A stretch of 64,000 nucleotides of DNA. Origin: an uncultured Actinomycetes bacterium. Lineage in GTDB: Bacteria; Actinomycetota; Thermoleophilia; Gaiellales; JAICJC01. Made by a program: the position numbers and the translations under genes. Location: positions 1,017,770 to 1,081,769 of the forward strand of contig CAVSYD010000003.1 of the NCBI GenBank assembly GCA_963732075.1. The letters are read 5' to 3'. The notes under the pieces were generated by a model. That model was given only the letters and a program-made list of their open reading frames with translations. It was not told the origin of the DNA and made no database searches. How positions within the stretch are numbered: the stretch's first letter is position 1; every line of letters starts with the position of its first letter. This document shows, piece by piece, positions 27,999 through 61,241 of this stretch.

Positions 27999-28643
27999 TC
28001 ACGAGCCGCCGGCAGGCTCCAGCTCGGCCGCGATCATCCCGGCGCAGATCTCGAGCATGCGGCTGCGCGACATCCAGGGATCGCCGAGGACGACCGACTT
28101 CCCCAGGCCATCGATGAGCGCGCACAGGCGGACGGCAAAGTCGTGCGCATCCACGCCGGGTGAGACCTCGCCCACCGCCTGCCCGCGCTCGACGATGCGC
28201 GCATACGCCGTCAGCCAGTGTCCCTCCAGCTCGCGCCGGTGGGCATCGACGGTTGGATTGCGTGGTGACCGAGCCCACACGTCGAGCCAGAGGAGCCACT
28301 GGCTGTGCGGCTCCTCGGTGGGATCCGAGGGCATCCCGAGCTCGATCAGCCGGAGCAGCCGGGCATGGGCGGTCGGCTCATGCTCCGTCTCGCGAAGGGC
28401 GTGGTCGAGAAAGCCGTCGTTGGCGAATCGCAGCGCCTCGATCAGCATCTCTTCGAGCGTCGCGAAGTAGTACATGACGTTCCCGGGACTCATGCCGGCG
28501 CGGTCGGCAATGTCGCTGACACGCGTGTCAGAGAGGCCGCGTTCGCAGATCGCAGCGATCGCCGCCTCGAGCACCCGCTCGCGTCTTGCCGCGCTCCTCC
28601 GCCTGGGCCGCGCGGCGGAGTCGTCCGTCGTCAGCGGATCCAC
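27999..28643 (-). CDS. TetR family regulator
   Basis: VLEAAIAAICERG...VSDIADRAGMSPGNVMYYF. Confidence 0.88.
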   Translation of the reverse strand: MDPLTTDDSAARPRRRSAARRERVLEAAIAAICERGLSDTRVSDIADRAGMSPGNVMYYFATLEEMLIEALRFANDGFLDHALRETEHEPTAHARLLRLIELGMPSDPTEEPHSQWLLWLDVWARSPRNPTVDAHRRELEGHWLTAYARIVERGQAVGEVSPGVDAHDFAVRLCALIDGLGKSVVLGDPWMSRSRMLEICAGMIAAELEPAGGS

Positions 28644-30334
28644 GCCTCGTCCCACAGGAATCCGGCCTGGGGGTTGTACTGGTACCCGTGCAGCCGCCGG
28701 GACACGAAGTCAACCAGCTTCGGGTTGAACAGGGTGATGATCGGCGAGAGGTCCGTCACCCGCCGGTCGACCTGCGCCCACAGGGTGTTCGCCGCGGTGG
28801 GGTCGGTCTCACCCAGCACGAGCGCATGGTTCATCTGCGCTTGCACCGAGCGATCGCAGAAGCCCGAGATGTTTGGGCTCGCGTCGCTGCCCGGGTGGAA
28901 GTAACTGCATCCAAGCAGGACGTTCAGGAAGTCCGACGCTGCCGGGTAGTCCTGAAACCACTGTGAGTAGCCGACCTGGGCGCGGTTCTTCGAGTCCTGA
29001 ATGTAGGGGTACTGGATCGCGCTGCTGAGCAGCTTCGGGGTCGCCACATAGCCGATCCGGTCGAGATCCTGGACGAACTGGAGCGTGATCTCCTTCCCGA
29101 TCGTGTCCTGGGTGCCGAAGACGCTGACATGGGCGCCACGCGTGCCCGACTGGGTGACGAGCTGCCGCGCCTTGGCGACATCGGGCGCCGTCCACTTGCC
29201 GTCGGCGCTGGGGTTTTGCGTGAACGGGCAGTACGGCTTGTAGCCGGGGAAGTTGGGCGGCAGGACCTGGCACGACGGTTGTGCCAGTGACGGGCCGCCG
29301 AAGATCTTGACGTACGTACTCCGCTGGATCCCGTAGTTCACCGCCTGGCGCGCCTTCAGGTTGTTGAACGGAGGCACGTTGACGTTGAGCGCCATGTAGT
29401 AGATCGCGGTCAGCGGGTTCACATGGGCCTGCGAGCCGTACTTCGTGCCGATCTCGTTCAGGCGGTCGGCCGGGGGCGCATCGGCCATCCAGTCGGCCTG
29501 GCCGTTCTCGATCTCGGTGACCTCGTCCTCGACCGTGAGCCCGAACTTGAACGCGATCTGGTTCGGGTACCCGGCCGGCTGTGCGGCCTTCGACCAGACG
29601 TGGAAGTGCGGGTTTCGCACCATCACGGCGCCCTTGTTCGGCTGGTAGGACTGCCACATGTACGGCCCGGTCCCGGGGATCGGCGTGTTGCCCATGTCGT
29701 GCAGCGGCGTGTTCCCGGGAACCGCGACCGCGAACGGCAGCGCGAGCTTGTCGAGGAACTCCGGATCAGGCGCCGCGAGATGAAACGTGATGGTGCCCGC
29801 GGCGTCGTTCGCCACCACCCCGTTCGACAGATTGCAGAGCTTCGCCGACTTCGCGCACTGCACCCCGCCGATGACTCCCTGGTAGAAGCTATTGGCCGGC
29901 CCGGGCACCGTGAACTGGCGCCTGAACACGGTGACGAAGTCGCTGGGCTTCACCACCTCGCCGTTCGAGTAGTGGATCCCAGGACGGACGTGGAACGTGT
30001 ACGTCTTGCCCCCGTCGGTCGGCGCCGGCACGGACGTGGCCAGATCCGGCACGATCACGGTCCCCGCGACACCGGCGGCGCGCCTGAAGCCGACCAGGCC
30101 GTCGGCGACGTACTGCGACGACTGAAACCCGAGCACGGTGTAGTTCTTCGCCGGGTCGAGCGTGCCCCAACTCGTGGTCGAGAGCATGATCATCGTCCCG
30201 CCCCGGTGCGATCCGCCCGCCGTTGCGGAACTCGCCGACGACGACCCGCCCCCGCAGCCGGCCAAAGCTGTCGCACCCACGCACATCATGGTGACACCCG
30301 CCAAGCGCCGCACGGACCCTCCGAGAACGGTCAT
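28631..30334 (-). CDS. Family-5 (Opp/Dpp-type) solute-binding lipoprotein with no adjacent permease or ATPase
   Basis: LAGC lipobox, TLDPA, PDLA...DGGKTYTF, GTGPY, ARQAVNYG. Confidence 0.88.
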   Translation of the reverse strand: MTVLGGSVRRLAGVTMMCVGATALAGCGGGSSSASSATAGGSHRGGTMIMLSTTSWGTLDPAKNYTVLGFQSSQYVADGLVGFRRAAGVAGTVIVPDLATSVPAPTDGGKTYTFHVRPGIHYSNGEVVKPSDFVTVFRRQFTVPGPANSFYQGVIGGVQCAKSAKLCNLSNGVVANDAAGTITFHLAAPDPEFLDKLALPFAVAVPGNTPLHDMGNTPIPGTGPYMWQSYQPNKGAVMVRNPHFHVWSKAAQPAGYPNQIAFKFGLTVEDEVTEIENGQADWMADAPPADRLNEIGTKYGSQAHVNPLTAIYYMALNVNVPPFNNLKARQAVNYGIQRSTYVKIFGGPSLAQPSCQVLPPNFPGYKPYCPFTQNPSADGKWTAPDVAKARQLVTQSGTRGAHVSVFGTQDTIGKEITLQFVQDLDRIGYVATPKLLSSAIQYPYIQDSKNRAQVGYSQWFQDYPAASDFLNVLLGCSYFHPGSDASPNISGFCDRSVQAQMNHALVLGETDPTAANTLWAQVDRRVTDLSPIITLFNPKLVDFVSRRLHGYQYNPQAGFLWDEAWIR

Positions 30335-30376
30335 TCTAGAATGTTCATTCTAATCAGATACCCGGCGGGGAGTCAA
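30323..30376 (-). promoter_or_regulatory. Promoter TTGACT-N18-TAGAAT overlapped by the inverted repeat TAGAATG-TT-CATTCTA and a second degenerate copy (candidate TetR operators)
   Basis: -35 at 30376-30371, -10 at 30352-30347, IR at 30337-30352, second site at about 30323-30338. Confidence 0.65.
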
Positions 30377-44993: not shown

Positions 44994-46748
44994 ATGGCCG
45001 CGGCCGACGCCACCGCCGACTCACAGCTGCACGGCAGCGCACCCGGCGAAAAGGGGCTCAAAGGCGGCTCGCTCGGGCTGATCTCGAGCATCGTGATGGG
45101 CATGGCGTCGACCGCGCCCGCCTACAGCCTGGCATCGGCGCTGGGGTTCGTGGTCGCCACCGTGGCGCTGCAGTCGCCGGTGATCATGCTGCTCGCGTTC
45201 GTGCCCATGTACATGATCGCGGTCGCCTACAAGGAGCTGAACGAGGCCGAGCCCGACTGCGGCACCACCTTCACCTGGGCGACCAGGGCGTTCGGGGCGT
45301 CCTGGGGCTGGATGGGCGGCTGGGGCATCTTCGCCGCCGACGTGATCGTGATGGCCAACCTGGCGCAGATCGCCGGCTCGTACGGCTATCTGCTCGTGGG
45401 CGCAAACCACCTTGCCGCTTCCACCCTCTGGGTGACGGTCGCCGGGATCGTGTGGATCGTGGTCATGACCTACATCTCGTGGATCGGGATCGAGATCTCG
45501 GCCAAGCTCCAGTACCTGCTCCTGGGGATCGAGGTCGTGGTGCTCGGTGTGCTGGCCGGAACGGCGCTGATCAAGGTCTACTCCGGGAACGGCGTCGCGG
45601 AGTCCAGCCGCATCCACCTGTCCTGGTTCAACCCCTTCGACATCTCGTCGCCGGGCGTGTTCGCCGCAGGCATCCTCGCCGCCGTCTTCATCTACTGGGG
45701 CTGGGATACCGCGGTCGCCTGCAACGAGGAGACCGCCGACGCAAACCACACTCCCGGACGCGCCGCCGTCATCTCGACCGTGCTGCTGCTGCTCACATAC
45801 GTGATCGTCACGCTCGGCGCGCAGGCCTGGGCCGGCGCCGGCAGCACGGGGATCGGACTCACCAACGCCGCCAACTCCGGCGACGTGCTGAGCGTCCTGG
45901 GGAACAGCATCTTCGGAGGCGGCGGCCTCGGCTCCGGTCTGACCAAGCTCCTGCTGTTCATGGTCATGACCAGCTCCATGGCTTCCACGCTGACCACGAT
46001 CCTGCCGACGGCCCGCACCACCCTGTCGATGGCCGCGTTCAAGGCGGCACCCCGGGTCTTCGCGAAGATCCACCCGCGCTACCTGACGCCCACCTGGTCG
46101 ACGTGGGGCATGGGCGCCGCCTCGGTGGCGTTCTACGTCGTCCTTACCCTGGTCAGCGGCAACGTCCTCAGCGACTCGATCGGATCGCTGGGGCTGATGA
46201 TCGCCTTCTACTACGGCCTGACGGGGTTTGCCTGCTTCTGGTTCTACCGGAACATCCCGTTGACGTTCCGCGAGTCGATGTCGCGCAGGATCGTGCCGCT
46301 GATCGGCGGGATCCTGCTGCTGGTGCTGTTCGTGTACGCCGCGAGCCAGTACATCAACCCCGACTACGGCTACACGTCGATCCCCGTTCCCGGCTTCCCC
46401 TACTACCACCACCGGGTCGGCGGCGTGTTTGCTCTCGGGATCGGCGTCCTGCTCTTGGGCATCGTCCTGATGCTGATCTGGCGCATGATCGCGCCCGAGT
46501 TCTTCCGGGGAGAGACGCTGCCGCGCAAGTCGTATCGCGAGCTGGTGCTGGTGCCCGCATCCGGTTCGGTCGTCCCCACTCTGGGTCTGCCAGACTCGAG
46601 TGCGGGGGCGACGGTGATCGCACCCGACCTGTCAAACCTGCCGCCCGGCTACTCGCGCGAGGACGTGGAATCCGCGAAGGAACTGGACGAGGAACAGGAA
46701 CGGAAACTGCGCGGCGAGGACGAGAGCCCGCCCCCCGACGACTCCTGA
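44994..46748 (+). CDS. APC family amino acid/polyamine permease
   Basis: ASTAPAYSL, PDCGTTFTW, FIYWGWD..NEET; TAGGAT-N6-ATG. Confidence 0.9.
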   Translation: MAAADATADSQLHGSAPGEKGLKGGSLGLISSIVMGMASTAPAYSLASALGFVVATVALQSPVIMLLAFVPMYMIAVAYKELNEAEPDCGTTFTWATRAFGASWGWMGGWGIFAADVIVMANLAQIAGSYGYLLVGANHLAASTLWVTVAGIVWIVVMTYISWIGIEISAKLQYLLLGIEVVVLGVLAGTALIKVYSGNGVAESSRIHLSWFNPFDISSPGVFAAGILAAVFIYWGWDTAVACNEETADANHTPGRAAVISTVLLLLTYVIVTLGAQAWAGAGSTGIGLTNAANSGDVLSVLGNSIFGGGGLGSGLTKLLLFMVMTSSMASTLTTILPTARTTLSMAAFKAAPRVFAKIHPRYLTPTWSTWGMGAASVAFYVVLTLVSGNVLSDSIGSLGLMIAFYYGLTGFACFWFYRNIPLTFRESMSRRIVPLIGGILLLVLFVYAASQYINPDYGYTSIPVPGFPYYHHRVGGVFALGIGVLLLGIVLMLIWRMIAPEFFRGETLPRKSYRELVLVPASGSVVPTLGLPDSSAGATVIAPDLSNLPPGYSREDVESAKELDEEQERKLRGEDESPPPDDS

Positions 46749-46749
46749 C

Positions 46750-47357
46750 CGTACGGGCTCAGCCACTCGCGCGAGCGCGGGTGCACCGTGGCCACCGCGA
46801 AGACCACCGCGAGCGCGGCGCCGATGGCAACCTCCACCGTCCACACGCTCGTCGGTGGCGAGAGCCGCCCGACCACCTCGCGGGCCACGGGTTCGAGGCA
46901 GAGCGCGCCCGGTGACGAGGGCGACGCTAACCCACGACCGGTCGACCCGCCAGCGCTGGCCCAACAGCCCGTACACCACCCCGGTCACCGCTCCCGCGGC
47001 GATGTAGACCCAGTTCTGGCCGCTGACGACGAGGCTCACCAGGCTGCTCGGAAACGATCCCGGCGAGACGCCCTCGAGCGGGCTGAGCGTCAGGACGAAG
47101 TAGCCGGCCAACGCCGACTGGGTCGCGACCAGTCCCAGTCGCATGGCCCGGCCGGAGCTGACCTGAGTCATCCCGAAGGCAAACGGCAAAACGAGCCACG
47201 GAGCCGACATCTGGCTGACGGTCGAGGGCCACGCGCCGTCCAGGACGAGCAGGCGAACGCTCCCCAGATACTGGTCGACACCACCGAATGCGAAGCCGGC
47301 GATCACCGCCAGCAGGTACGCCGAGGATCGAGGGTGCCCGGGGGCGCGTGGTGCCAT
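46750..47357 (-). CDS. Hypothetical membrane protein (DUF6518-like), indel near 46910; end uncertain
   Basis: FGGVDQYLG...MSAPWLVLPFAFG; several TM segments. Confidence 0.6.
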
Positions 47358-47393
47358 GCCAGCTTGGACGCCCACCCGGGGCGAATGTTTGCC

Positions 47394-47457
47394 CCCACCC
47401 CAATCGGGGACAGTCCCCGGTTGGTTGGGGTGTGTCTTTCGTACACGTTTAGTGACA
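47394..47457 (+). repeat. ~64-bp REP/MITE-like repeat, left copy
   Basis: CCCACCCCAATCGGGGACAGTCCCCGGTTGG (47394-47424) identical to 53322-53352, followed by a similar GT-rich tail ending GTGACA. Confidence 0.85.
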
Positions 47458-47514
47458 CGCCGGGCCGCCCGCCAGCTCACCAGTCTCGGGCATCCGGTCA
47501 GGCTCCCGTAGGAA

Positions 47515-50500
47515 CTACCGCGTCGGGCGGATACGGAGTTGGTCGAGGAGCACGCCGAGGGACGGGTTGTACTGGTAGTCGGTGACGCGGCTTGAGAGAA
47601 AGTCGATGTTGTTTTGGTCCGCGAGTGGTACCCACGGTGCGGCGTAGGTGACGGCTCGATCGACCTTCGCCCATGTCGCCGCTGCGGCGGTCGGGTTGGT
47701 GGGCTGTTCGCGGTCGGCCTGGTTCATCAGCCGGTCGGCGGCGGGGTCGCAAAAGAACGAGCCGTTGCGTGTTGCGGTTGGGTCATCGAGCTTCCATGCC
47801 GAGCAGCGGAAGAAGAAGTCGAAGAAGTCGGAGGCCGATGTGGCGTCCACCCCGCCGTCGCTGGCCTGGATCCGTCGGCGCGAGTTGTTGACCGCCCTGA
47901 ACAGGGCGTTGAACGATGGGACGTGAACTCGGGTCGGGTACCCGAGCTCGCGCAGTACCGATGCGTTGAAGGATCTGAGGGCGTCCCCGGGGAACGACCA
48001 CAGCGTCACGTGCATGCCCTCGGTGCCTGACGCTGCGACGAGTCTGCGGGCGGCAGGGAGGTCGGGCCCGACCCACCTGCCGCGGGGATTTGGGTCTGTG
48101 GTGAACGGGCAGTACGGTCGGTATCCGGGCACGCCGGGCGGCAGGATCTGGCAGGTTGGCTCGGCGACCTTCGGGCCGCCGAGGTCCGCGATTAGGCGGC
48201 GGCGGTTGGCGGCGAGGCTAAACGCGCGCCGCACCGCGGGGATGGTTGAACGGCGGGACGCGGGTGTTGAATGCGATGTACATGATCGAGGGCGCCGGAC
48301 TGGCCCGCACCCTGCCCGGGAAGCGCGCGGCGAGCCTGGCCGCGTTGGGCAGCGAGTCGTTCGTCCAGTCGGCGCTTCCGACAGCGATCTCGTGGGCCTC
48401 CTGCGCCACGGGCGCACCGAACCGCCACACGATGTGATCGGGCGATCCCTTGGGCTGGGCGGCTTGCGACCATTCATGGAAATACGGGTTGCGGGAGAAG
48501 ACGATGTCGCGACCGGGGATGTCGCGGGTGATCATGTACGGCCCCGTCCCGGGGACCGGGCGTGTGCCGACGTTCCCGCGTGGCACCGACGGTGGGACGG
48601 GGGCCGCGAACCCCCACGCCAGCTTCTCGAGGAACTCTGGGTCTGGAGCCTTCAGATGGAACGTGATCGTCCGGGCAGAGTCATCGATGGTGATGCCACG
48701 GTCCAGATGACAGACGTGTCCGGGCCTGCACGCCGCCGCACCAACGATTCCCTCGACACTGGACGCAGCGTTCACGCTCAGCTGGAAGACGCGCTCCATC
48801 GCATAGCGGAAGTCCTGGGGCCGTACCGGCTGGCCGTTGGAGTAGTGCAGATTCGGCCGCAGCGTGAACGTGTACGTGGTCCCGCCTGCGCTCACGGTCG
48901 GCATGGCCAGCGCGAGGTCGGGCACCAGCAACAGGCCGTTGTTGCCGCCCGTCTTTGCGAATGTCACCAGCGAGTCGTACGTGGCGTCGGTGAACGCCGG
49001 CTCCATCCGGAAGTAGAGCTGTACGGGGTCGAGCGAGCCGGGAGGCAGACTGCTGAGAACGCGCAACGTGCCTCCCGCCGGCCGAACCGGCGCCGCACCT
49101 GCTGCAAACCAGAGCTGGCCGTGGGCGGCGGCCAGCGCCACCGGCCCGCCGCCTAGACGGATCGTTTGCGCCGATCGTGCGCCCCTCTGGGGGATCCGGG
49201 TGAGCGTGGATGACAGCCTGTCGGCGGCCCACACGGTGTCACCGTCGATGGCAAGGGCGTCCGGCCGTCGCCTGCGGGGATGGTGTCGACGACGGTGTCG
49301 GTGCCCGGGTCGACACGCGAAACGGTGCTGTCGAGTCCGTTGGCCACCCAAACCGACCCGCGGCCGAATGCGACGGCCGTTGGGCCGCCGCCGACCTGGA
49401 TGGCCTGGCCGGCCCGTCTACTGGTGGAGTCCACCCGGATCAGGCTGTCATCGGACGGGCTCGTGACCCATACCGAGCCGGCGCCGTACGCAACTCCGAA
49501 CGGCGCCGACGTGAGCGGGATCGTCGCCCGACGGTGGCCGGAGATCGGATCGATTTCCGACAGCGTGCTGTCCAGAGAATTGGCCACCCAGACCGCCCCG
49601 CCTCCGAACGCGATCCCGGTTGGCTCCGCACCGACGGTCGATCGTATGGATCACCCGATCGTTGGCCACGTCTGATGCGTGAGACCGAATCGCCCAGGGT
49701 ATTTGCGACCCAGATGTCCCGGCCGGTCGCCGCGATCGCGTTCGGGCCGGCACCAACCGGGATCCTGTCCGTAATCGACGGAGTACGTGGGTCGATCCGA
49801 TAGACGGCGTCGTCGTCCGGGCTCGTCACCCACACCGAGCCGTCGGCCGCGACGGCGCCGCCCGGCGGGCCGGGCAGGGCGAGGCGGTGCCCAATGCTGC
49901 CGCCGTTGACGCCCAGTTCGCCCACGCTGTTTGGGAGCTCGGTGGCGTGCGTCTGATCGGACCGCAGGACAGCAACACCGATCGCGAGTGCCACGCCGGC
50001 GGTCGTGGCCGCCACCGCTGCCCAGAGCCGCGTCCGGCGCGGCCGGACGCGGAGGTTCAGCTGTTCGAGGGGCGATCTGGGCGGCCACGGGACGCAGGGC
50101 GCGCTCGACCGCGCCGCCGCTCACGTGTCCGAGCTCCGGGCCTGGCACGAGGATCGCCCGCTCCAGCTCGCGAAGCTCCGGGCCGGGCTCGAGGCCGAGT
50201 TCGTCGGCCAAGAGATCGCGGGCGCGGCGGAACGCCGCCAGCGCCTCGGCCTGCCGTCCCGAGCGATAGAGGGCGAGCATGAGCTGCGCGTGAAAGCATT
50301 CGCGGTAGGGCGACGTCGGCGATGAGCGACTCGAGCTCCGGGACAAGCTCGCGATGGTGGCCCAGCCGGAGCCGCGCCTCGAGCGAGCTTCTCGAGCGCC
50401 GTCAGCCGCTCGTCCTCCAGGCCGCTGTGCGGCAGCGGTGCGAACGGTCGCGTCCCGGATGTCGGCCAACGCCGGGCCGCGCCACAGAGCGAGCGCTGAT

Positions 50501-50884
50501 CCGACGAGCGCCGCCGCCTCCGTCGCGTCACCGCGCTCGAGGGCGTCGCCGCCGCGGGCGGCGAGGTCGCGGAATCGGCAGACGTCGACAGCCTCCGGCG
50601 CCAGGTCGAGCATGTAGCCGCTCGGGCGTGGTGACGAGGACCGCGCCCCCGGCTCCTGCGGCGGAAAGGGCATGGCGGATGCGGGAGATGTACGTCTCGA
50701 CGGTGTGTGTCGCCGACCGGCGGGCCGTCTCGCCCCACAGGTCATCGATCAGCTGGGCGGTCGTGACCGGGCGCCCGACGTGGAGGGCGAGGTCGGCGAT
50801 GACCGCACGCTGCCTGGGGCCACCGAGCGGAAGCGAAATGTCATCCGCGGAGACCTCGATCGTCCCGAGCAGCCTGAATTCCAT
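47515..50884 (-). CDS. SARP (wHTH+BTAD) regulator fused to TM helix, YVTN beta-propeller and family-5 solute-binding domain; reconstructed across several indels (~1,120 aa)
   Basis: MEFRLLGTIEV..LGGPRQRAV..LIDDLWG; ALALWRGPALAD; QLMLALYRSGRQAEAL; TM AGVALAIGVAVL; VWVANSLDSTLSEIDP repeats; SLDPV..PDLA..GTTYTF..GTGPY..FCDP. Confidence 0.8.
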
Positions 50885-50967
50885 CGGCCTTGCCTCTGGT
50901 CACGATCCTGCCGTGGAGAGCATACGACGGCCATCGTGCGAGTGCCAGGGCAGCGCCTTCCATGCGG

Positions 50968-51011
50968 GTTCGAGCGTTTTGCGACCGAGTTGCGACCGGC
51001 CCGCCTATCGT
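50968..51011 (+). promoter_or_regulatory. SARP-type promoter: three direct repeats at 11-bp period upstream of a -10 box
   Basis: GTTCGAGCG (50968-76), TTGCGACCG (50979-87), TTGCGACCG (50990-98); TATCGT at 51006-51011; GAGGAGG RBS and ATG 51040. Confidence 0.7.
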
Positions 51012-51039
51012 CGGCCGCTCCAACACCGAGGAGGCGGTC

Positions 51040-53310
51040 ATGAGCGGCAGCAGGCCAAATGCGCGGAAGGTCACCATCGTCCTCTGGGCGGCACTGGCGC
51101 TCGCCGCGACCGGAGGCCGACGCGGCCATCGCAGCCCAATCGCATAGCGCGGCGATCGCCGCCGATCGTCTCGGTGGGCGGCAATCCGATCGGCGTGGCC
51201 GTCGATAACGCCACGCACACCGTCTACGTCGCAAACAACGCCGACAACACGGTGTCGGTGATCAACGCCGCCACCTGCAACGCTAGGGACACCGCCGACT
51301 GCGGGCAGCACCCGGCGACGGTGAAGGTCGGGGCGGCGCCGATCGGCGATGCGGTCGACCAGAGGACCGACACGGTCTACGTCGTGAACACGGGGAGCAA
51401 CACGGTGTCGGTGATCGACGGCAGGACGTGTAACGCCACGGTCAGGTCGGGGTGCGGCACGGTGGAGACGATCCCGGTCGGCAGCGGCCCGAACGTGGAC
51501 GCGGTCGACGAGAAGACCGACACGATCTACGTCGCGAACTTCGGCAGCAACACGGTGTCGGCGATCGACGGGGCCACCTGCAACAGCATGGTGACGTCCG
51601 GGTGCGGCAAGACCCCGCCCGTCGTGCATGTCGGGTCGGGCCCGCAGGGCCTCGGTGTGGATGCGAAGACCGACACCGTCTACGACACGAACGGCAACGG
51701 CAACGTGCGGCTCGGTCTCGGTGATCAACGGCGCCACATGCAACGCGACCGTCACGAGCGGGTGCGGCCAGACACCGGCCACGGTCAAGCTGACCGGCCC
51801 GGCCGACGGCGCCGCCGGTCGACGACGCGACGCACACGGCATACGTGCTCGCCGGGGGCGGATCGCCGCTCGGCTCGATCGCGATGATCGACACGGCCAC
51901 ATGCGACGCGACCCACCACTCCGGCTGCGGCCGCACCCCGGCCATCGCGCAGGGCGGCAGCGGCCCGATCTGGATCGTCGCGGATCCGGCGACGAGGACG
52001 ATGTACATCGCCAACCAGGAGGACGGCGACGTGTCGGCCCTGAACACCGCGACGTGCAACGCACACCGGCAATCGGGGTGCACGCGGCCGCTCCCCGCAA
52101 TCGCGGCCGCACCCGGAGCCGGCGCGGTCGACGTCGACATCGCCACCGACACCGCTCTACTACTCGAGCCAGGACGACAACACGGTCTCGGTGCTGAACG
52201 GCGCGACGTGCAACGCGACCCACACTCACGGCTGCACGAGGTTCGCGCCGACGACGACGGTCGGCAACCTGCCCACGGGAGTCGCTGTGAATCAGGCGAC
52301 CGGCACGCTGTACGTCGGCAACCGGGCCGATGGCGACCTGTCGGTCATCGACCCGCGTAGGTGCAACGCTGGCCATCTGCGCGGATGCCGTCGCGCGTGG
52401 CCCACCGTCAAAGCAGGAGTGACCCCCGAGGCGCTGGCGGTGGACGAGCGGACGGACACGATCTATACGACGAACTCCGACCCCGACAATGGCTACCTTG
52501 GCGACACCGTCTCGGTCATCGACGGAGCGACCTGCAACGCCCATACGACGTCGGGCTGTCGGGCGACACCGGGGACGATCAAGGTGGGAAACGGGCCCAA
52601 CACCATCGCGGTCAACCCGCGTACCGACACGGTCTACGTCACCAACGCCAACGACAACACGATGTCTGTGATCAACGGCGCGACGTGCAACGCGACGGTC
52701 AGGTCGGGGTGCGGCCAGACGCCGGCGACCATCACGGTGCCGGCGGGCGACTTCGCCGGCTCCGTCGCCGTGAACCCGAAGACCGACACCGTGTACTTCA
52801 CGCTCGAACGTCGGGCAACGGGCGTCGGCGGGGTGGATGTGATCAACGGCGCCACCTGCAACGGCACGGTGCGGACGGGCTGCAGGCCGGCCACCGTGAC
52901 GATGAGGCTGGGCTCGTACGCGGGCAAGCTCGTGGTCGACCAGCGGACGGACACGGTGTACGTCCTGAACATCGGCGGGAACGATGTGTCTGTGGTCGAT
53001 GGCGCCACCTGCAACGCGCACGTGACGCGTGGTTGCCACCGGACGGCACCTACGATGGCGCTCGATGAATTCCCGACAGGTATCGGCCTGAACCCGATGA
53101 CGGGCGCCGTCTACGTCGACTCGTTCGGGGCATCCGACGTGTGGGTGTTCGACGGAGCCAGACTGCAACGCGAAGGTCACCGCGGGCTGCAGCCAGCGGC
53201 CGAAGGTGGTGGCCACCGGCGGCTCGACCGCGGACATCGCCGTGAGCCAGGCCACGAACACCGCCTACGTCGCCGACCAGGCCGACGGCGAGCTGTCGCT
53301 GATCCGGTAG
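51040..53310 (+). CDS. Secreted YncE/YVTN-repeat protein, 14 blades with 13 Cx7C motifs (several indels)
   Basis: Signal-like N-terminus; repeat unit VG.GP..VAVD..TDTVYV.N...NTVSVI.GATCNA....GC. Confidence 0.82.
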
Positions 53311-53321
53311 CCGCGGCCGGG

Positions 53322-53385
53322 CCCACCCCAATCGGGGACAGTCCCCGGTTGGGGTGGGTTTGTGTTTTGTGCGCGTTTTGTGACA
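53322..53385 (+). repeat. ~64-bp REP/MITE-like repeat, right copy; also forms an 18-bp hairpin followed by a T-rich tail (terminator-like)
   Basis: CCCACCCCAATCGGGGAC-A-GTCCCCGGTTGGGGTGGG then TTTGTGTTTTG. Confidence 0.85.
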
Positions 53386-53395
53386 GGCAGCAGAT

Positions 53396-57632: not shown

Positions 57633-57720
57633 GTGGTGGAACTCCTCTCGATTGGTGACGTTGCTACCGTAGAGCGGCCGTCGCGGCTTTCACGGATCTC
57701 GACAGCAGCGCTTCATACGC

Positions 57721-58876
57721 ATGACCACGCCTGAATCCCCCCACTTCCCGGTCGCAAGCACGGGCGTCGACGACCTCGACCAGGCCCTCCACGGCCTCTA
57801 CTGGGGCGACAACGTGGTCTTCGAGCCCGACCGCACCGACACGGCCGCGCCGTTCTACGCCGCGATCGCCGGGCTGACCGCGCTCTACGACCACGCCGCC
57901 TACGTGTCGGTGTCGCAGACCCCGGAGGCGATCGAGCGCGAGTTCCCCAACCTCGCGTTTCTGGACGCCCGCCCCGGCACCCCGCTCGCGGAGCCAGGAC
58001 CGCTCCTGAACGCGATCAGGCGCCGGTGCACGCCCCAGACGCGCACGCTGCTCCTGTTCGACCCGCTCGACGACATGGCCGCGAACTGGGGCGCCGAGAT
58101 GGCGCGGCGCTTCTTCACCCGCTGCTGCCCGCTCCTGCTCGAGGTCGGCGCAATCGCCTACTGGTCGCTCTCGCAGGGCGAGCACTCCGAGAACCTTCGC
58201 CGCGATGTCGAGGACGTGACCCAGTGCGTGCTCGTCCTGCGCGACGGCCGGCTGCGGATCGCCAAGGCCGAGGGCCGCCCGGTCGGCGTGCAGGGAAGCG
58301 TCTACCACTACCGGCTCGCCGACGGCACGCCCGAGCTCACGCAGGCAACGGCAGCGGCCCGCCTCGGTGGGGCGCTGCGGGCGGTGCGCATGCAGCGCCA
58401 GTTGAGTCAGGCCCAGCTCGCCCAGCTCGCCGAGGTCTCCGCCAGCGCCATCTCGCAGGCCGAGCGCGGCCAGCGCGGGCTCTCCCTCGAGACCCTGCTG
58501 ACACTCACCGCGAACCTCAACATCACGGTCGACGAGCTGCTGCGCGGCCACATCGCCCCGGGTTACCGGCTCGGCCGCCGCGACGACCCCGCCGCGACAC
58601 CCACCGGCACCCCCGTCCCCCTGCTGGACGACCCCGAGGCGGGCCTTCGCACCTACCTCGTGCGGCTCGCCCCGGGAGCCACGGCCACCCCGAACATCGC
58701 CCACAAGGGCACCGAGCTCGTCGCCGTCGTCGCCGGGCTGGTGCAGATCCACCTGAGCAGCGGCCGCCCCGTGCTGCGCCAGGGCGAGGCCCTGCTCGCC
58801 GATCGCAGCACCATCCGCGGCTGGCGCAACATCGGCCAGCGCCCGGCGGCCCTCTTCTGGGTCATCCGCGACTTAA
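57721..58876 (+). CDS. Degenerate KaiC/RecA-like domain + XRE helix-turn-helix + cupin regulator
   Basis: STGVDDLDQAL..; LSQAQLAQLAEVSASAISQAERG; HKGTELV..; likely true stop TAA 58874-58876 (one extra T). Confidence 0.78.
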
Positions 58877-58896
58877 CCCAGTCCTACACTAAGGAC

Positions 58897-59738
58897 GTGG
58901 CGATCTCGTTCTCGGACTTCGACGACCCGGCCTTTGCGGCGGAGTTCGCGGCTCGCCGGCAGGACCGCATCGAGCGCGTCATGTCGCACCTTGTCCCGCT
59001 GTCCGGGATCGCGAGCGGGCCAGACCGTGGTCGACCTGTGCTGCGGCCCCGGCCTTCTGACGCGCCGGCTGGCCGAGCTGGTCGGCCCGGCGGGGAGGGT
59101 GATCGGCGTCGACGGGTCGGAGGCGATGGTCGAATCGCCCGCCGCGAGACGGCCGGCATGGGCAACGTGCGGATCGTGCACCGCGACGGCTACGCCGTCT
59201 CGACGGCGGTGGACGCCCCCGTCGATCACGTCATCGCGACGAGCGCATGGCAGAACTTCCTCACCGACCATCGCCGCCTCCTCGGCGAGCTCGGCCGCAC
59301 GCTGCGGCCCGGCGGCCGGTTCAGCTTCGACGTGCGGCTGCGCATCGGCGAGACGACGGATGTGGCCTTCGCGGACGTCGTCGCGCTCGTGCGGGCGCGG
59401 GTTCCCGGTCTCGAGCTGCCCGACCTGCCCGAGCGGCCGGCGCGGCAACCCTACGGCCGCGCCGAGCTCGAAGGCGACCTCGACGGTACTCGGCGAGCGC
59501 GGGTTCCAGTGTGGTCGAGCACGTCGAGGACGAGCGCGGCGGCGCGGGAACATGGCTCGACCGCCAGAGCTGGCGGTTCGAGTTCTGGCTCGCCCGCAAC
59601 GCTCCGCGGCTCTCGGCGGCCGAACGGGCGGCGGTCGTCGCCGACGTCACGCGTGAGCTGCGCGAGGGCCGCGCACACACCGAGGCCCGCCGCGTCGCCG
59701 TCGACATCGTCGCCGCGCGCACGCCCAAAGCCGCGTAG
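58897..59738 (+). CDS. Class I SAM-dependent methyltransferase (several indels)
   Basis: TACACT-N6-GTG; VVDLCCGPG, VIGVDGSEAM, LRPGGRF. Confidence 0.78.
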
Positions 59739-59820
59739 CCCCGGCTGCTGGGAGGTGCTGGCAATCGCGGAGAGTCCGTGTACCCTTGAACCGGGCGTTC
59801 TTCGACTGCTTGGAGGCAGG

Positions 59821-61241
59821 ATGTTGCGTTGGCGTGGATCGGTTGTGTGCGCGGTTTTCGTCTCGGCGCTGGTGTTCGCCGCCGGTGCCCAGGCCGTGGT
59901 GGCCGGGTCGAAGCCCGTGCTGTCTTCGTGGCAGACCAACGGCCGGGTCGAGACCGTCGTCATCAGCGGGTCGACGGCATACCTGGGTGGACTGTTCACG
60001 TCGATGCGGCCCTCCGGCGATCCGGTCGGAACGGGCGAGGTCGCCCGCAACCACGCGGCGGCGATCGACCTCGAGACGGGCGCGCTCCTGCCCTGGAACC
60101 CGAATGCGAACAACACCGTCCAGACGATCGCGGTGAACGGCTCGACGGTGTATCTGGGCGGCACGTTCGGCACGGTCGGCGGCAAGACCCACACCCGCCT
60201 GGCCGCCGTGGACGCGACCACGGGCGCACCGATCGCGACGTTCAAGGCGAAGGCCAACGCCGAGGTGATGTCGATCGCCGTGGGCGCGACCGGCCTCTAC
60301 GCGGGCGGCAGCTTCACCACCGCCGACAACGTCGCACACAACTATCTGGCCGAGGTCGATCTCTCGACCGGCGCGCTCGTGCCCGGGTGGACACGCGAGC
60401 GCGAGCGCGAAGGTCAACGCGATCGCCCTGACCACCGACGGCTCGCGCCTGGTCGTGGCTGGCACGTTCGCGAGCCTCGACGGGGTGACGGGCCACTCGA
60501 TCGGCGCGGTCAGCCCGGCGACCGGCGCCCTGCTCGGCTGGACGACGCACCCCTCCTACGCCATCACCACGCTCGCCGTCGACGCAAGCGGCGTCTACGC
60601 GGCGGGTACCGGAGCCGGCGGGAACATCGTCGCGTTCAACCCCTCGACCGGCGCGCAGCTGTGGATCGGCGGCCTGGACGGCAACGACCAGGCGATCGCG
60701 GTCGACAGCGGCAACGTCTATGTCGGCGGGCACTTCAACAACTACTGCGGCAAGGTGATGGGCACGAACAACTGCCCCTCGGCCGGGCGCGCGCGACCAT
60801 CTGCTCGCGCTGGACGAGACCACCGGCAGCCTCGAGGCGTGGCATCCCGCCGCCAACGGCGTCCTGGGCGTGTTCGCGCTCGCCGGCGGGGACGGCACCA
60901 TCGAGGCCGGCGGCGACTTCACCAAGATCGGCGGCTCCAGCCAGCAGGGCTTCGCGGAGTTCCCCGAGATCACGCTACCCACCGTCACCGACAGCGCCGG
61001 CGGGCTCCCGACGGCCACCACCCCGGTCACGGTCACGGCCACGGGCTCGACCGACACCGCACCGGGATTCGTCGGATACAAGTACGAGACGTCGACGAAC
61101 AACGGCACCACGTGGAGCGCGCTGCGAACCGGCGCCACGGCGACGGTGAAGGCGGTCGGCGTCACCGAGGTGCGCTTCGAGACCGTCGACGCCTACGGCA
61201 ACACGAGCGGCTGGGTCACGGACACCGTCACCATCACCTGA
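59821..61241 (+). CDS. Secreted beta-propeller protein with C-terminal Ig-like tail (two indels)
   Basis: Signal peptide ending AQA; repeats YLGG.F...AAIDL.TGALLPWNP; RBS GGAGG. Confidence 0.75.

Follow-up and report, generated by a model that had tools for sequence, protein, structure and literature searches.

SARPs such as AfsR, EmbR, ActII-ORF4 and DnrI are treated as cytoplasmic activators of antibiotic gene clusters, and they take their inputs through NTPase/TPR or FHA domains. In other receptors a propeller or Venus-flytrap ectodomain is joined through one transmembrane (TM) helix to a cytoplasmic output. This logic is shared by Mycobacterium tuberculosis PknD, which consists of a kinase, a TM helix and a beta-propeller, by BvgS and EvgS, which are sensor kinases with periplasmic Venus-flytrap domains, and by the animal natriuretic-peptide receptors, which are guanylate cyclases. 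Neither a SARP output nor a propeller in tandem with a family-5 solute-binding domain (SBP5) is known for any of these receptors. We analysed a gene that combines these parts. It lies at 47515-50884 on the minus strand of a 64,000-nucleotide stretch, hereafter the window, of contig CAVSYD010000003.1 from the metagenome-assembled genome (MAG) of an uncultured Actinomycetes bacterium (GCA_963732075.1). Our analysis suggests that its product, which we call the receptor, is probably a single-pass, one-component transcription activator that spans the membrane with its N-terminus inside the cell and carries an extracellular propeller-SBP5 sensor. We infer its ligand binding, DNA binding, activation of transcription and target from the sequence.

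The 2024 SARP review (PMC10972967) divides the family into small SARPs, medium ones with NB-ARC, large ones that have both NB-ARC and TPR, and SARP-LAL. All of these classes are cytoplasmic, and a count of 'membrane' in the review gives 0. The original prediction for this locus, made from the letters alone, had likewise taken the characterised SARPs to be cytoplasmic, in agreement with the classes given in that review (PMC10972967). The receptor resembles AfsR, EmbR, ActII-ORF4 and DnrI in its winged helix-turn-helix (HTH) followed by a bacterial transcriptional activation domain (BTAD), in the conserved base-contacting Arg, and in a candidate operator of 11-bp direct repeats near a -10 element. 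It differs from them in having an extracellular input and no NTPase, whereas EmbR uses an FHA domain.

A census of transmembrane transcription regulators (TTRs) defines them by a DNA-binding domain and at least one TM region (PMC10269533). The receptor has both in one polypeptide, with the DNA-binding side predicted to be cytoplasmic and the sensor outside. The words BTAD, SARP, SBP and propeller are absent from the main text of the census (PMC10269533). With ToxR, CadC and TcpP the receptor shares a cytoplasmic N-terminal OmpR-type winged HTH, one TM helix, a C-terminal sensor on the outside, and the lack of a kinase or phosphorelay. It differs from these three in the BTAD that follows the winged HTH, in its ectodomain of ~830 residues made of the propeller and SBP5, and in its host, an uncultured soil Thermoleophilia-like actinobacterium. 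Beyond the TM helix, a Pfam scan of intact family members returned propeller families and SBP_bac_5 only, and no periplasmic family of the ToxR or CadC type. The original prediction of a ToxR/CadC-like receptor is borne out in layout and predicted topology: the receptor works like ToxR and CadC but is outside that family in the strict sense.

The third group to compare with is the cluster-C (family 5) solute-binding proteins (SBPs), e.g. OppA, DppA and OppA2 (2wok) and 8upi, with which the receptor shares a complete SBP_bac_5 fold. In contrast to these proteins, which are free or lipid-anchored, the fold is here the C-terminal domain of a regulator, where it stands behind a propeller and carries three family-specific Cys pairs, and the receptor gene has no adjacent permease genes among the nine flanking open reading frames (ORFs) scanned in the window. 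We found no description of a transmembrane SARP or of a SARP-SBP fusion in the full-text literature; the supplements of the TTR census (PMC10269533), which lie outside that search, may list such architectures. The same full-text searches returned no experimental characterisation, as had been anticipated.

The receptor gene starts with an ATG at 50884, ends with a stop at 47517-47515, and is spread in this assembly over six overlapping frame pieces. Its features are listed below in window coordinates, with the evidence for each in brackets; P0002 is the nearest intact homologue, with 1119 amino acids (aa).

47515-50884, minus strand: whole gene including the stop, ~1120 aa after discounting nine assembly indels (end-to-end alignment to P0002)
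50615-50884, minus strand: N-terminal OmpR-type winged HTH (Trans_reg_C), predicted to be cytoplasmic (Pfam; aligned to AfsR and EmbR)
50149-50589, minus strand: BTAD, which holds three of the frameshift sites (Pfam, 120.7 bits; 158 bits in P0002)
~50148-50025, minus strand: Arg/Pro-rich linker of ~35 residues that joins BTAD to the TM helix
49965-50024, minus strand: single predicted TM helix (top hydrophobic 19-mer in 35/35 homologues)
49100-49890, minus strand: seven-blade YVTN-type beta-propeller, predicted to be extracellular (Trp every 40 residues; TIGR02276; match to 1l0q)
47518-49075, minus strand: complete solute-binding domain of family 5 (cluster C type), in which three Cys pairs are invariant, predicted to be extracellular (Pfam; 8upi_A, 2wok_A)
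48235-50626, strand not applicable: span of the nine single-base indels (frameshift-aware alignment and contigs)

In a frameshift-aware alignment the gene matched residues 1-1119 of P0002 with 921/1119 identical residues (82%), zero in-frame stops and nine frame changes. We scanned the six frame pieces with Pfam and obtained Trans_reg_C at 39.7 bits (cut-off 26.2) over residues 23-86 of the first piece, BTAD at 120.7 bits, a weak Vgb_lyase match below the cut-off for the propeller, and SBP_bac_5 split over two pieces at 115.6 and 19.4 bits. From the N-terminus, the protein has the winged HTH and BTAD, then a basic linker and one TM helix, and finally the seven-blade YVTN propeller and the family-5 solute-binding domain. 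The coordinates and the domain list of the original prediction are therefore correct by both the Pfam scan and the alignment to P0002, and the indels resolve, by this alignment and by metagenome contigs, into one ORF rather than into separate SARP and SBP genes. In the source genome, tblastn located a single full-length family member.

The predicted topology rests on an alignment of 35 full-length members. In 35/35 of them the 19-residue segment of highest hydrophobicity falls after BTAD and before the propeller, with a mean Kyte-Doolittle value of 2.31 against 1.47 for the next best segment, and the count of Lys and Arg is 5.5 in the 15 residues before this helix versus 1.0 after it. The hydrophobic segment and the charge bias together predict that the protein crosses the membrane once and keeps its SARP module in the cytoplasm, consistent with the one hydrophobic helix originally noted. 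The outside location of the C-terminal part also fits the conserved Cys pairs and the domain types, which are normally extracytoplasmic. The linker between BTAD and the TM helix is rich in Pro and Arg and poorly conserved.

The propeller has an invariant Trp at positions 349, 389, 429, 469, 509, 549 and 589, i.e. every 40 residues and seven times, so that the count of about seven YVTN-type repeats made by eye is now seven repeats of 40 residues with an invariant Trp in each. It matches TIGR02276 at 79.3 bits (cut-off 27.85) in four stretches and aligns to 1l0q. The SBP part scores 150.9-164.6 bits against SBP_bac_5 in intact members (cut-off 32.4; E 1e-44 to 1e-48), and it aligns over nearly the whole of 8upi_A and 2wok_A. 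In the latter the alignment covers positions 12-550 of 562, which argues for a complete binding-protein fold and upholds the reading of a full family-5 domain. Three invariant Cys pairs lie within this domain in the aligned homologues.

Full-length homologues are abundant. We searched with a 377-aa piece among longer proteins and obtained 465 matches, and the counts that follow come from the best 120 of them. The combination PF00486+PF03704+PF00496 (Trans_reg_C, BTAD and SBP_bac_5) is present in 100 of the 120, six more have BTAD but no winged HTH call, and the remaining 14 are ectodomain-only ORFs of 666-894 aa. One 90% cluster holds products of 299 aa and 844 aa from a single contig, hence at least some of the short forms are split genes. 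Pfam confirms the three-domain architecture on P0002, P0010 and P0080; for P0002 the scores are 40.1 bits for Trans_reg_C and 158 bits for BTAD over all 146 profile positions. We found no whole-protein model for this architecture in Pfam or NCBIfam when the intact members were scanned. The homologues are named 'YVTN family beta-propeller protein' or 'ABC transporter substrate-binding protein', so the suspicion that such regulators are hidden by their annotation was well founded.

The full-length genes come from MAGs named Thermoleophilia, Gaiellales, Solirubrobacterales, Actinomycetota and, in one case, 'Chloroflexia'; among the 80 loci kept, matches in cultured genera are limited to the SARP part. 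We also compared 61 related genomes. One of them, G003, holds an orthologue with 65% identity in an intact open frame of 1170 aa, and G010, G017, G018, G042, G043, G055 and G058 have full-length matches at 39-44% identity, some of them in several copies. The architecture is real and common, and the membrane SARPs form a real, widespread and uncharacterised family.

Nine frame changes within 3.4 kb, in a window where many other genes are long open frames, could also be read as real, with the copy in the window being a decaying pseudogene of the family. We consider this very improbable. An extra base was predicted near 50626, 50448, 50381, 50314, 50079, 49673, 49642 and 48235 and a missing base near 49265, and eight of nine changes are thus one-base insertions, which we take to be typical of consensus errors. 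Over 47400-51100 we aligned contigs that came from four runs of a single soil-metagenome study; no RNA run was listed for this stretch. The contigs omit one base at 48238, 49641, 49673, 50316, 50382 and 50449 and add a C after 49264. Seven of the nine predicted sites have contig coverage, and at these sites every spanning contig gives back the frame. At four of the covered sites the supporting contigs have 0-3 other differences from the window. The lack of in-frame stops and the 82% identity to P0002 also speak against decay.

The assembly itself shows the same fault elsewhere. The source genome has 3.88 Mb in 7 contigs and is 71% complete by marker genes. Its rpoB (C5:301349-304655 of G000, locus L102) is broken into five pieces that match the family model in at least three reading frames. 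As this essential gene cannot be a pseudogene, the indels are a property of the assembly, and frequent errors of this kind probably explain the completeness of 71% despite the small number of contigs. Judged by RpoB, which is 76-78% identical to that of named Gaiellaceae/Thermoleophilia MAGs and up to 93% identical to that of MAGs without a name, the source organism is an uncultured relative of this group. Several observations weigh on the other side. Sites 50626 and 50079 have no contig coverage, and each covered site is represented by one or two contigs of low depth (2-6) from a single study. The sites 50316, 50382 and 50449 depend on one 223-nt contig with 12 differences from the window, and this contig therefore derives from a relative. 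The first 108 residues of the database protein P0145 are 99% identical to the window piece 49587-49264; P0145 crosses 49265 in frame and then takes the wrong frame of the window after ~48236, so the indel at 48235 recurs in another assembly product. With both sides considered, the nine frameshifts are errors of an indel-prone MAG assembly and not gene decay.

The SARP part aligns to the chains of AfsR (residues 26-285) and EmbR (residues 12-259) with E ~1e-41, or 1e-70 with a profile. In AfsR, T88 and R92 are the base-contacting residues of the recognition helix (PMC10936776). The equivalent of R92 is Arg in 35/35 homologues, and the equivalent of T88 is Thr in 17, Ser in 8, Ala in 8 and another residue in 2, i.e. 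Thr or Ser in 25/35. The window protein itself has Thr and Arg at the two positions. By the SARP rule given in the same paper, the repeats are 11 or 22 bp apart and the 3' repeat lies 8 bp from the -10 element (PMC10936776). The spacer between the receptor gene and its divergent neighbour holds two elements of this kind.

50969-50997, plus strand: candidate SARP box of three direct heptamers at an 11-bp period (TTCGAGC, TGCGACC, TGCGACC)
51006-51011, plus strand: TATCGT, a -10-like hexamer 8 nt past the last heptamer

On the plus strand the spacer thus reads TTCGAGC gttt TGCGACC gagt TGCGACC, 8 nt, TATCGT, GGAGG and ATG, a layout that fits the published SARP operator rule at the level of sequence. 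The promoter first marked at 50968-51011 coincides with the heptamer box plus the hexamer. In G003 the corresponding block is TGCGAGC gttt TGCGACC, 9 nt and TATCGT; it is conserved, while the rest of the spacer is ~55% identical. The strict tandem has a single occurrence in the 3.88-Mb genome, and the loose heptamer pattern occurs three times genome-wide, two of them at this spacer, with 2.4 expected. No sigma-70-like promoter was found in the divergent spacer. An automated repeat search of this spacer of ~155-158 bp returned nothing, and the box was found by reading and by a regular expression.

Three facts count against this candidate operator. The contigs add a C at 51003, which makes the gap between the last heptamer and TATCGT 8 or 9 nt. 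G003 has two heptamers versus three in the window. Upstream of 21 related genes, exact heptamer pairs spaced by 11 bp were found in three, each with a different sequence. A family-wide shared operator was rejected on this last result, and the box is common to the window and G003 only. Within 40 nt before the starts in L099, L101, L001, L095 and L002 we noted similar strings (e.g. CCTGG.A...G...TGCA, with a GTG start); in these subfamilies they may represent a leader or a regulatory element that has been conserved.

The gene on the other side of the spacer is the following.

51040-53300 (3' end approximate), plus strand: divergent gene in several frames, coding for a secreted protein with many propeller-type repeats and a CNA...GC motif

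This gene contains at least nine DNA repeats of ~153-160 bp that are 60-80% identical, with the repeat unit YV.N...VSVI(D/N)..TCNA....GC, which corresponds to a blade of the propeller type in which a disulfide loop is probable. It has weak Pfam matches only (YNCE, NHL and Lactonase), and its reading frame, like that of the receptor gene, is broken in this assembly. In G003 (L093), the homologous gene at the divergent position carries a signal of the lipoprotein type. From the arrangement of the sequence, the divergent secreted propeller-repeat gene is likely the direct target of the receptor. A point against this assignment is that the propeller-repeat neighbour is common to three of the 17 loci compared (the window, G003 and L005); no other neighbour in the window recurs beside the receptor genes of G003 and L005. 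A conserved neighbourhood in the wider sense was rejected, as no neighbour cluster other than the divergent gene occurs in more than four of the 17 loci; beta-helix proteins, for instance, adjoin the more distant members L001 and L101.

We propose that an extracellular solute, perhaps captured or presented with the aid of the propeller, would close the family-5 (Venus-flytrap) binding domain, which would be braced by its three disulfides and stands directly after the propeller. The packing of the ectodomain would then change in such a way that two or three tethered SARP modules align on the three heptamers spaced by 11 bp. These heptamers would replace the -35 element in the divergent promoter. 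The SARP modules would recruit RNA polymerase as AfsR does, and the neighbouring secreted propeller-repeat gene would be switched on.

The same ectodomain is used with other outputs. We compared a profile of the TM-propeller-SBP5 part (A3) with 1.84 billion cluster representatives (50% clusters) and obtained 6100 matches at E <= 1e-30, the best 150 of which cover the whole ectodomain with E <= 4e-189. By BLAST to exemplars, the N-termini of these best 150 are SARP in 70, adenylate/guanylate-cyclase-like in 47, a Ser/Thr kinase in one and unclassified in 32; most of the last group begin within the propeller or with a BTAD or cyclase tail, and are thus fragments. Pfam finds Guanylate_cyc-TM-propeller-SBP_bac_5 in L090, L004, L009 and L010, Pkinase-propeller-SBP_bac_5 in P0148 and Pkinase-propeller in L038. 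The cyclase- and kinase-fused relatives mirror the layouts of the natriuretic-peptide receptors and PknD. That one module serves signalling outputs of three kinds points most readily to a ligand sensor, and from its domain contexts the ectodomain is best taken as a swappable sensor module. Two further Pfam layouts were seen. P0179 has a SARP and a Guanylate_cyc domain ahead of the propeller-SBP_bac_5 ectodomain, and at L014:4532-7738 a SARP-TM-propeller protein has a type-I Peripla_BP_6 domain replacing SBP5.

The shared outputs also bear on how the signal might reach the DNA. An alternative hypothesis is regulated proteolysis, in which binding or loss of the ligand triggers cleavage near or within the TM helix, so that the freed SARP fragment is active and the full-length form is a latent store. 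The poorly conserved Pro/Arg-rich linker of ~35 residues would be a plausible protease site, and proteolytic control is reported for other membrane-bound regulators (titles and abstracts of PMC11484849 and PMC7593790). On the other hand, the ORFs scanned around the receptor gene include no site-1 or site-2 protease gene, and the cyclase and kinase outputs driven by the same ectodomain act as membrane-bound dimers that need no release. We regard proteolytic release as unlikely, and favour the activator that acts from the membrane.

The binding domain raises another alternative, a transceptor, in which the tethered SBP mainly serves uptake through an ABC importer encoded elsewhere and the SARP couples the occupancy of the transporter to transcription. 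Its complete family-5 fold is closest to peptide-type binding proteins (8upi_A and 2wok_A) and is 39-40% identical to stand-alone SBP5 proteins of the same genome. Moreover, the homologous locus L100 adjoins an SBP5 gene, two permeases and a LacI regulator, i.e. a Dpp-type ABC operon, and this neighbourhood speaks against a dedicated sensor. However, such an operon is adjacent in one of the 17 loci (L100), for which not every neighbouring ORF was scanned; none of the nine flanking window ORFs scanned is an ABC permease, an ATPase or another ABC component; and a dedicated sensor accounts better for the fusion of this ectodomain to outputs of the cyclase and kinase types. The transceptor hypothesis seems to us still less probable than proteolytic release, and the one-component activator with an extracellular sensor is the reading that we keep.

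Some other features of the window and the genome were noted. A stand-alone family-5 binding protein of 572 aa, 39-40% identical to the SBP part of the receptor, is encoded at 28634-30349 on the minus strand, between a TetR regulator and a PhzF-like gene and without adjacent permease genes. A second stand-alone SBP5 lies at C5:310246-311877, and such a copy is present in nearly every related genome. Just downstream of the receptor gene, a 282-aa ORF with hydrophobic, membrane-like stretches (46635-47480, minus strand) has no Pfam match and is not conserved beside the G003 orthologue. The first half of a 1158-aa frame at 57673-61146 on the plus strand matches HTH_3, Cupin_2 and, weakly, a methyltransferase; on these matches it was rejected as a paralogue of the receptor, which is of similar size, and it may be several genes fused by a high-GC open frame or by assembly indels.

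A 67-nt element with a GC-rich palindromic core is found at 47394-47460 and 53322-53388, just past the 3' ends of the divergent pair, and the two copies are 85% identical. Metagenome contigs break or branch at 47430-47432. We rejected the idea of a mobile cassette bracketed by this direct repeat, since the genome has ~40 dispersed partial copies (83 BLAST rows for the two copies), and the element has the appearance of an intergenic repeat of the REP-like kind that may act as a terminator.

Taken at its widest, our reading is that soil Thermoleophilia and related Actinomycetota hold a large undescribed receptor superfamily, in which the propeller-SBP5 module is placed on at least three outputs, namely SARP, cyclic-nucleotide and Ser/Thr-kinase. 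The SARP branch would be the first SARPs to sense an extracellular signal directly and to work on DNA while in the membrane, and the locus in the window would be a minimal circuit of a receptor gene, one SARP box and one secreted propeller-protein target. We see the case for this wider reading as evenly balanced.

If a SARP spans the membrane and senses through an extracellular binding protein, the family reaches into direct environmental sensing, and the ToxR/CadC-type regulators gain an actinobacterial class that contains a BTAD. Genes of this kind call for caution in indel-prone long-contig MAGs, where they appear as fragments, and the names 'ABC substrate-binding protein' and 'YVTN propeller protein' mask the regulator. 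With one operator and one target, both predicted, the system is compact enough for work in a heterologous host, and actinobacterial engineering might gain a new ligand-responsive switch from it. Since transcription, cyclase and kinase outputs are all joined to the same ectodomain, one ligand identified would explain many receptors in abundant uncultured soil bacteria.

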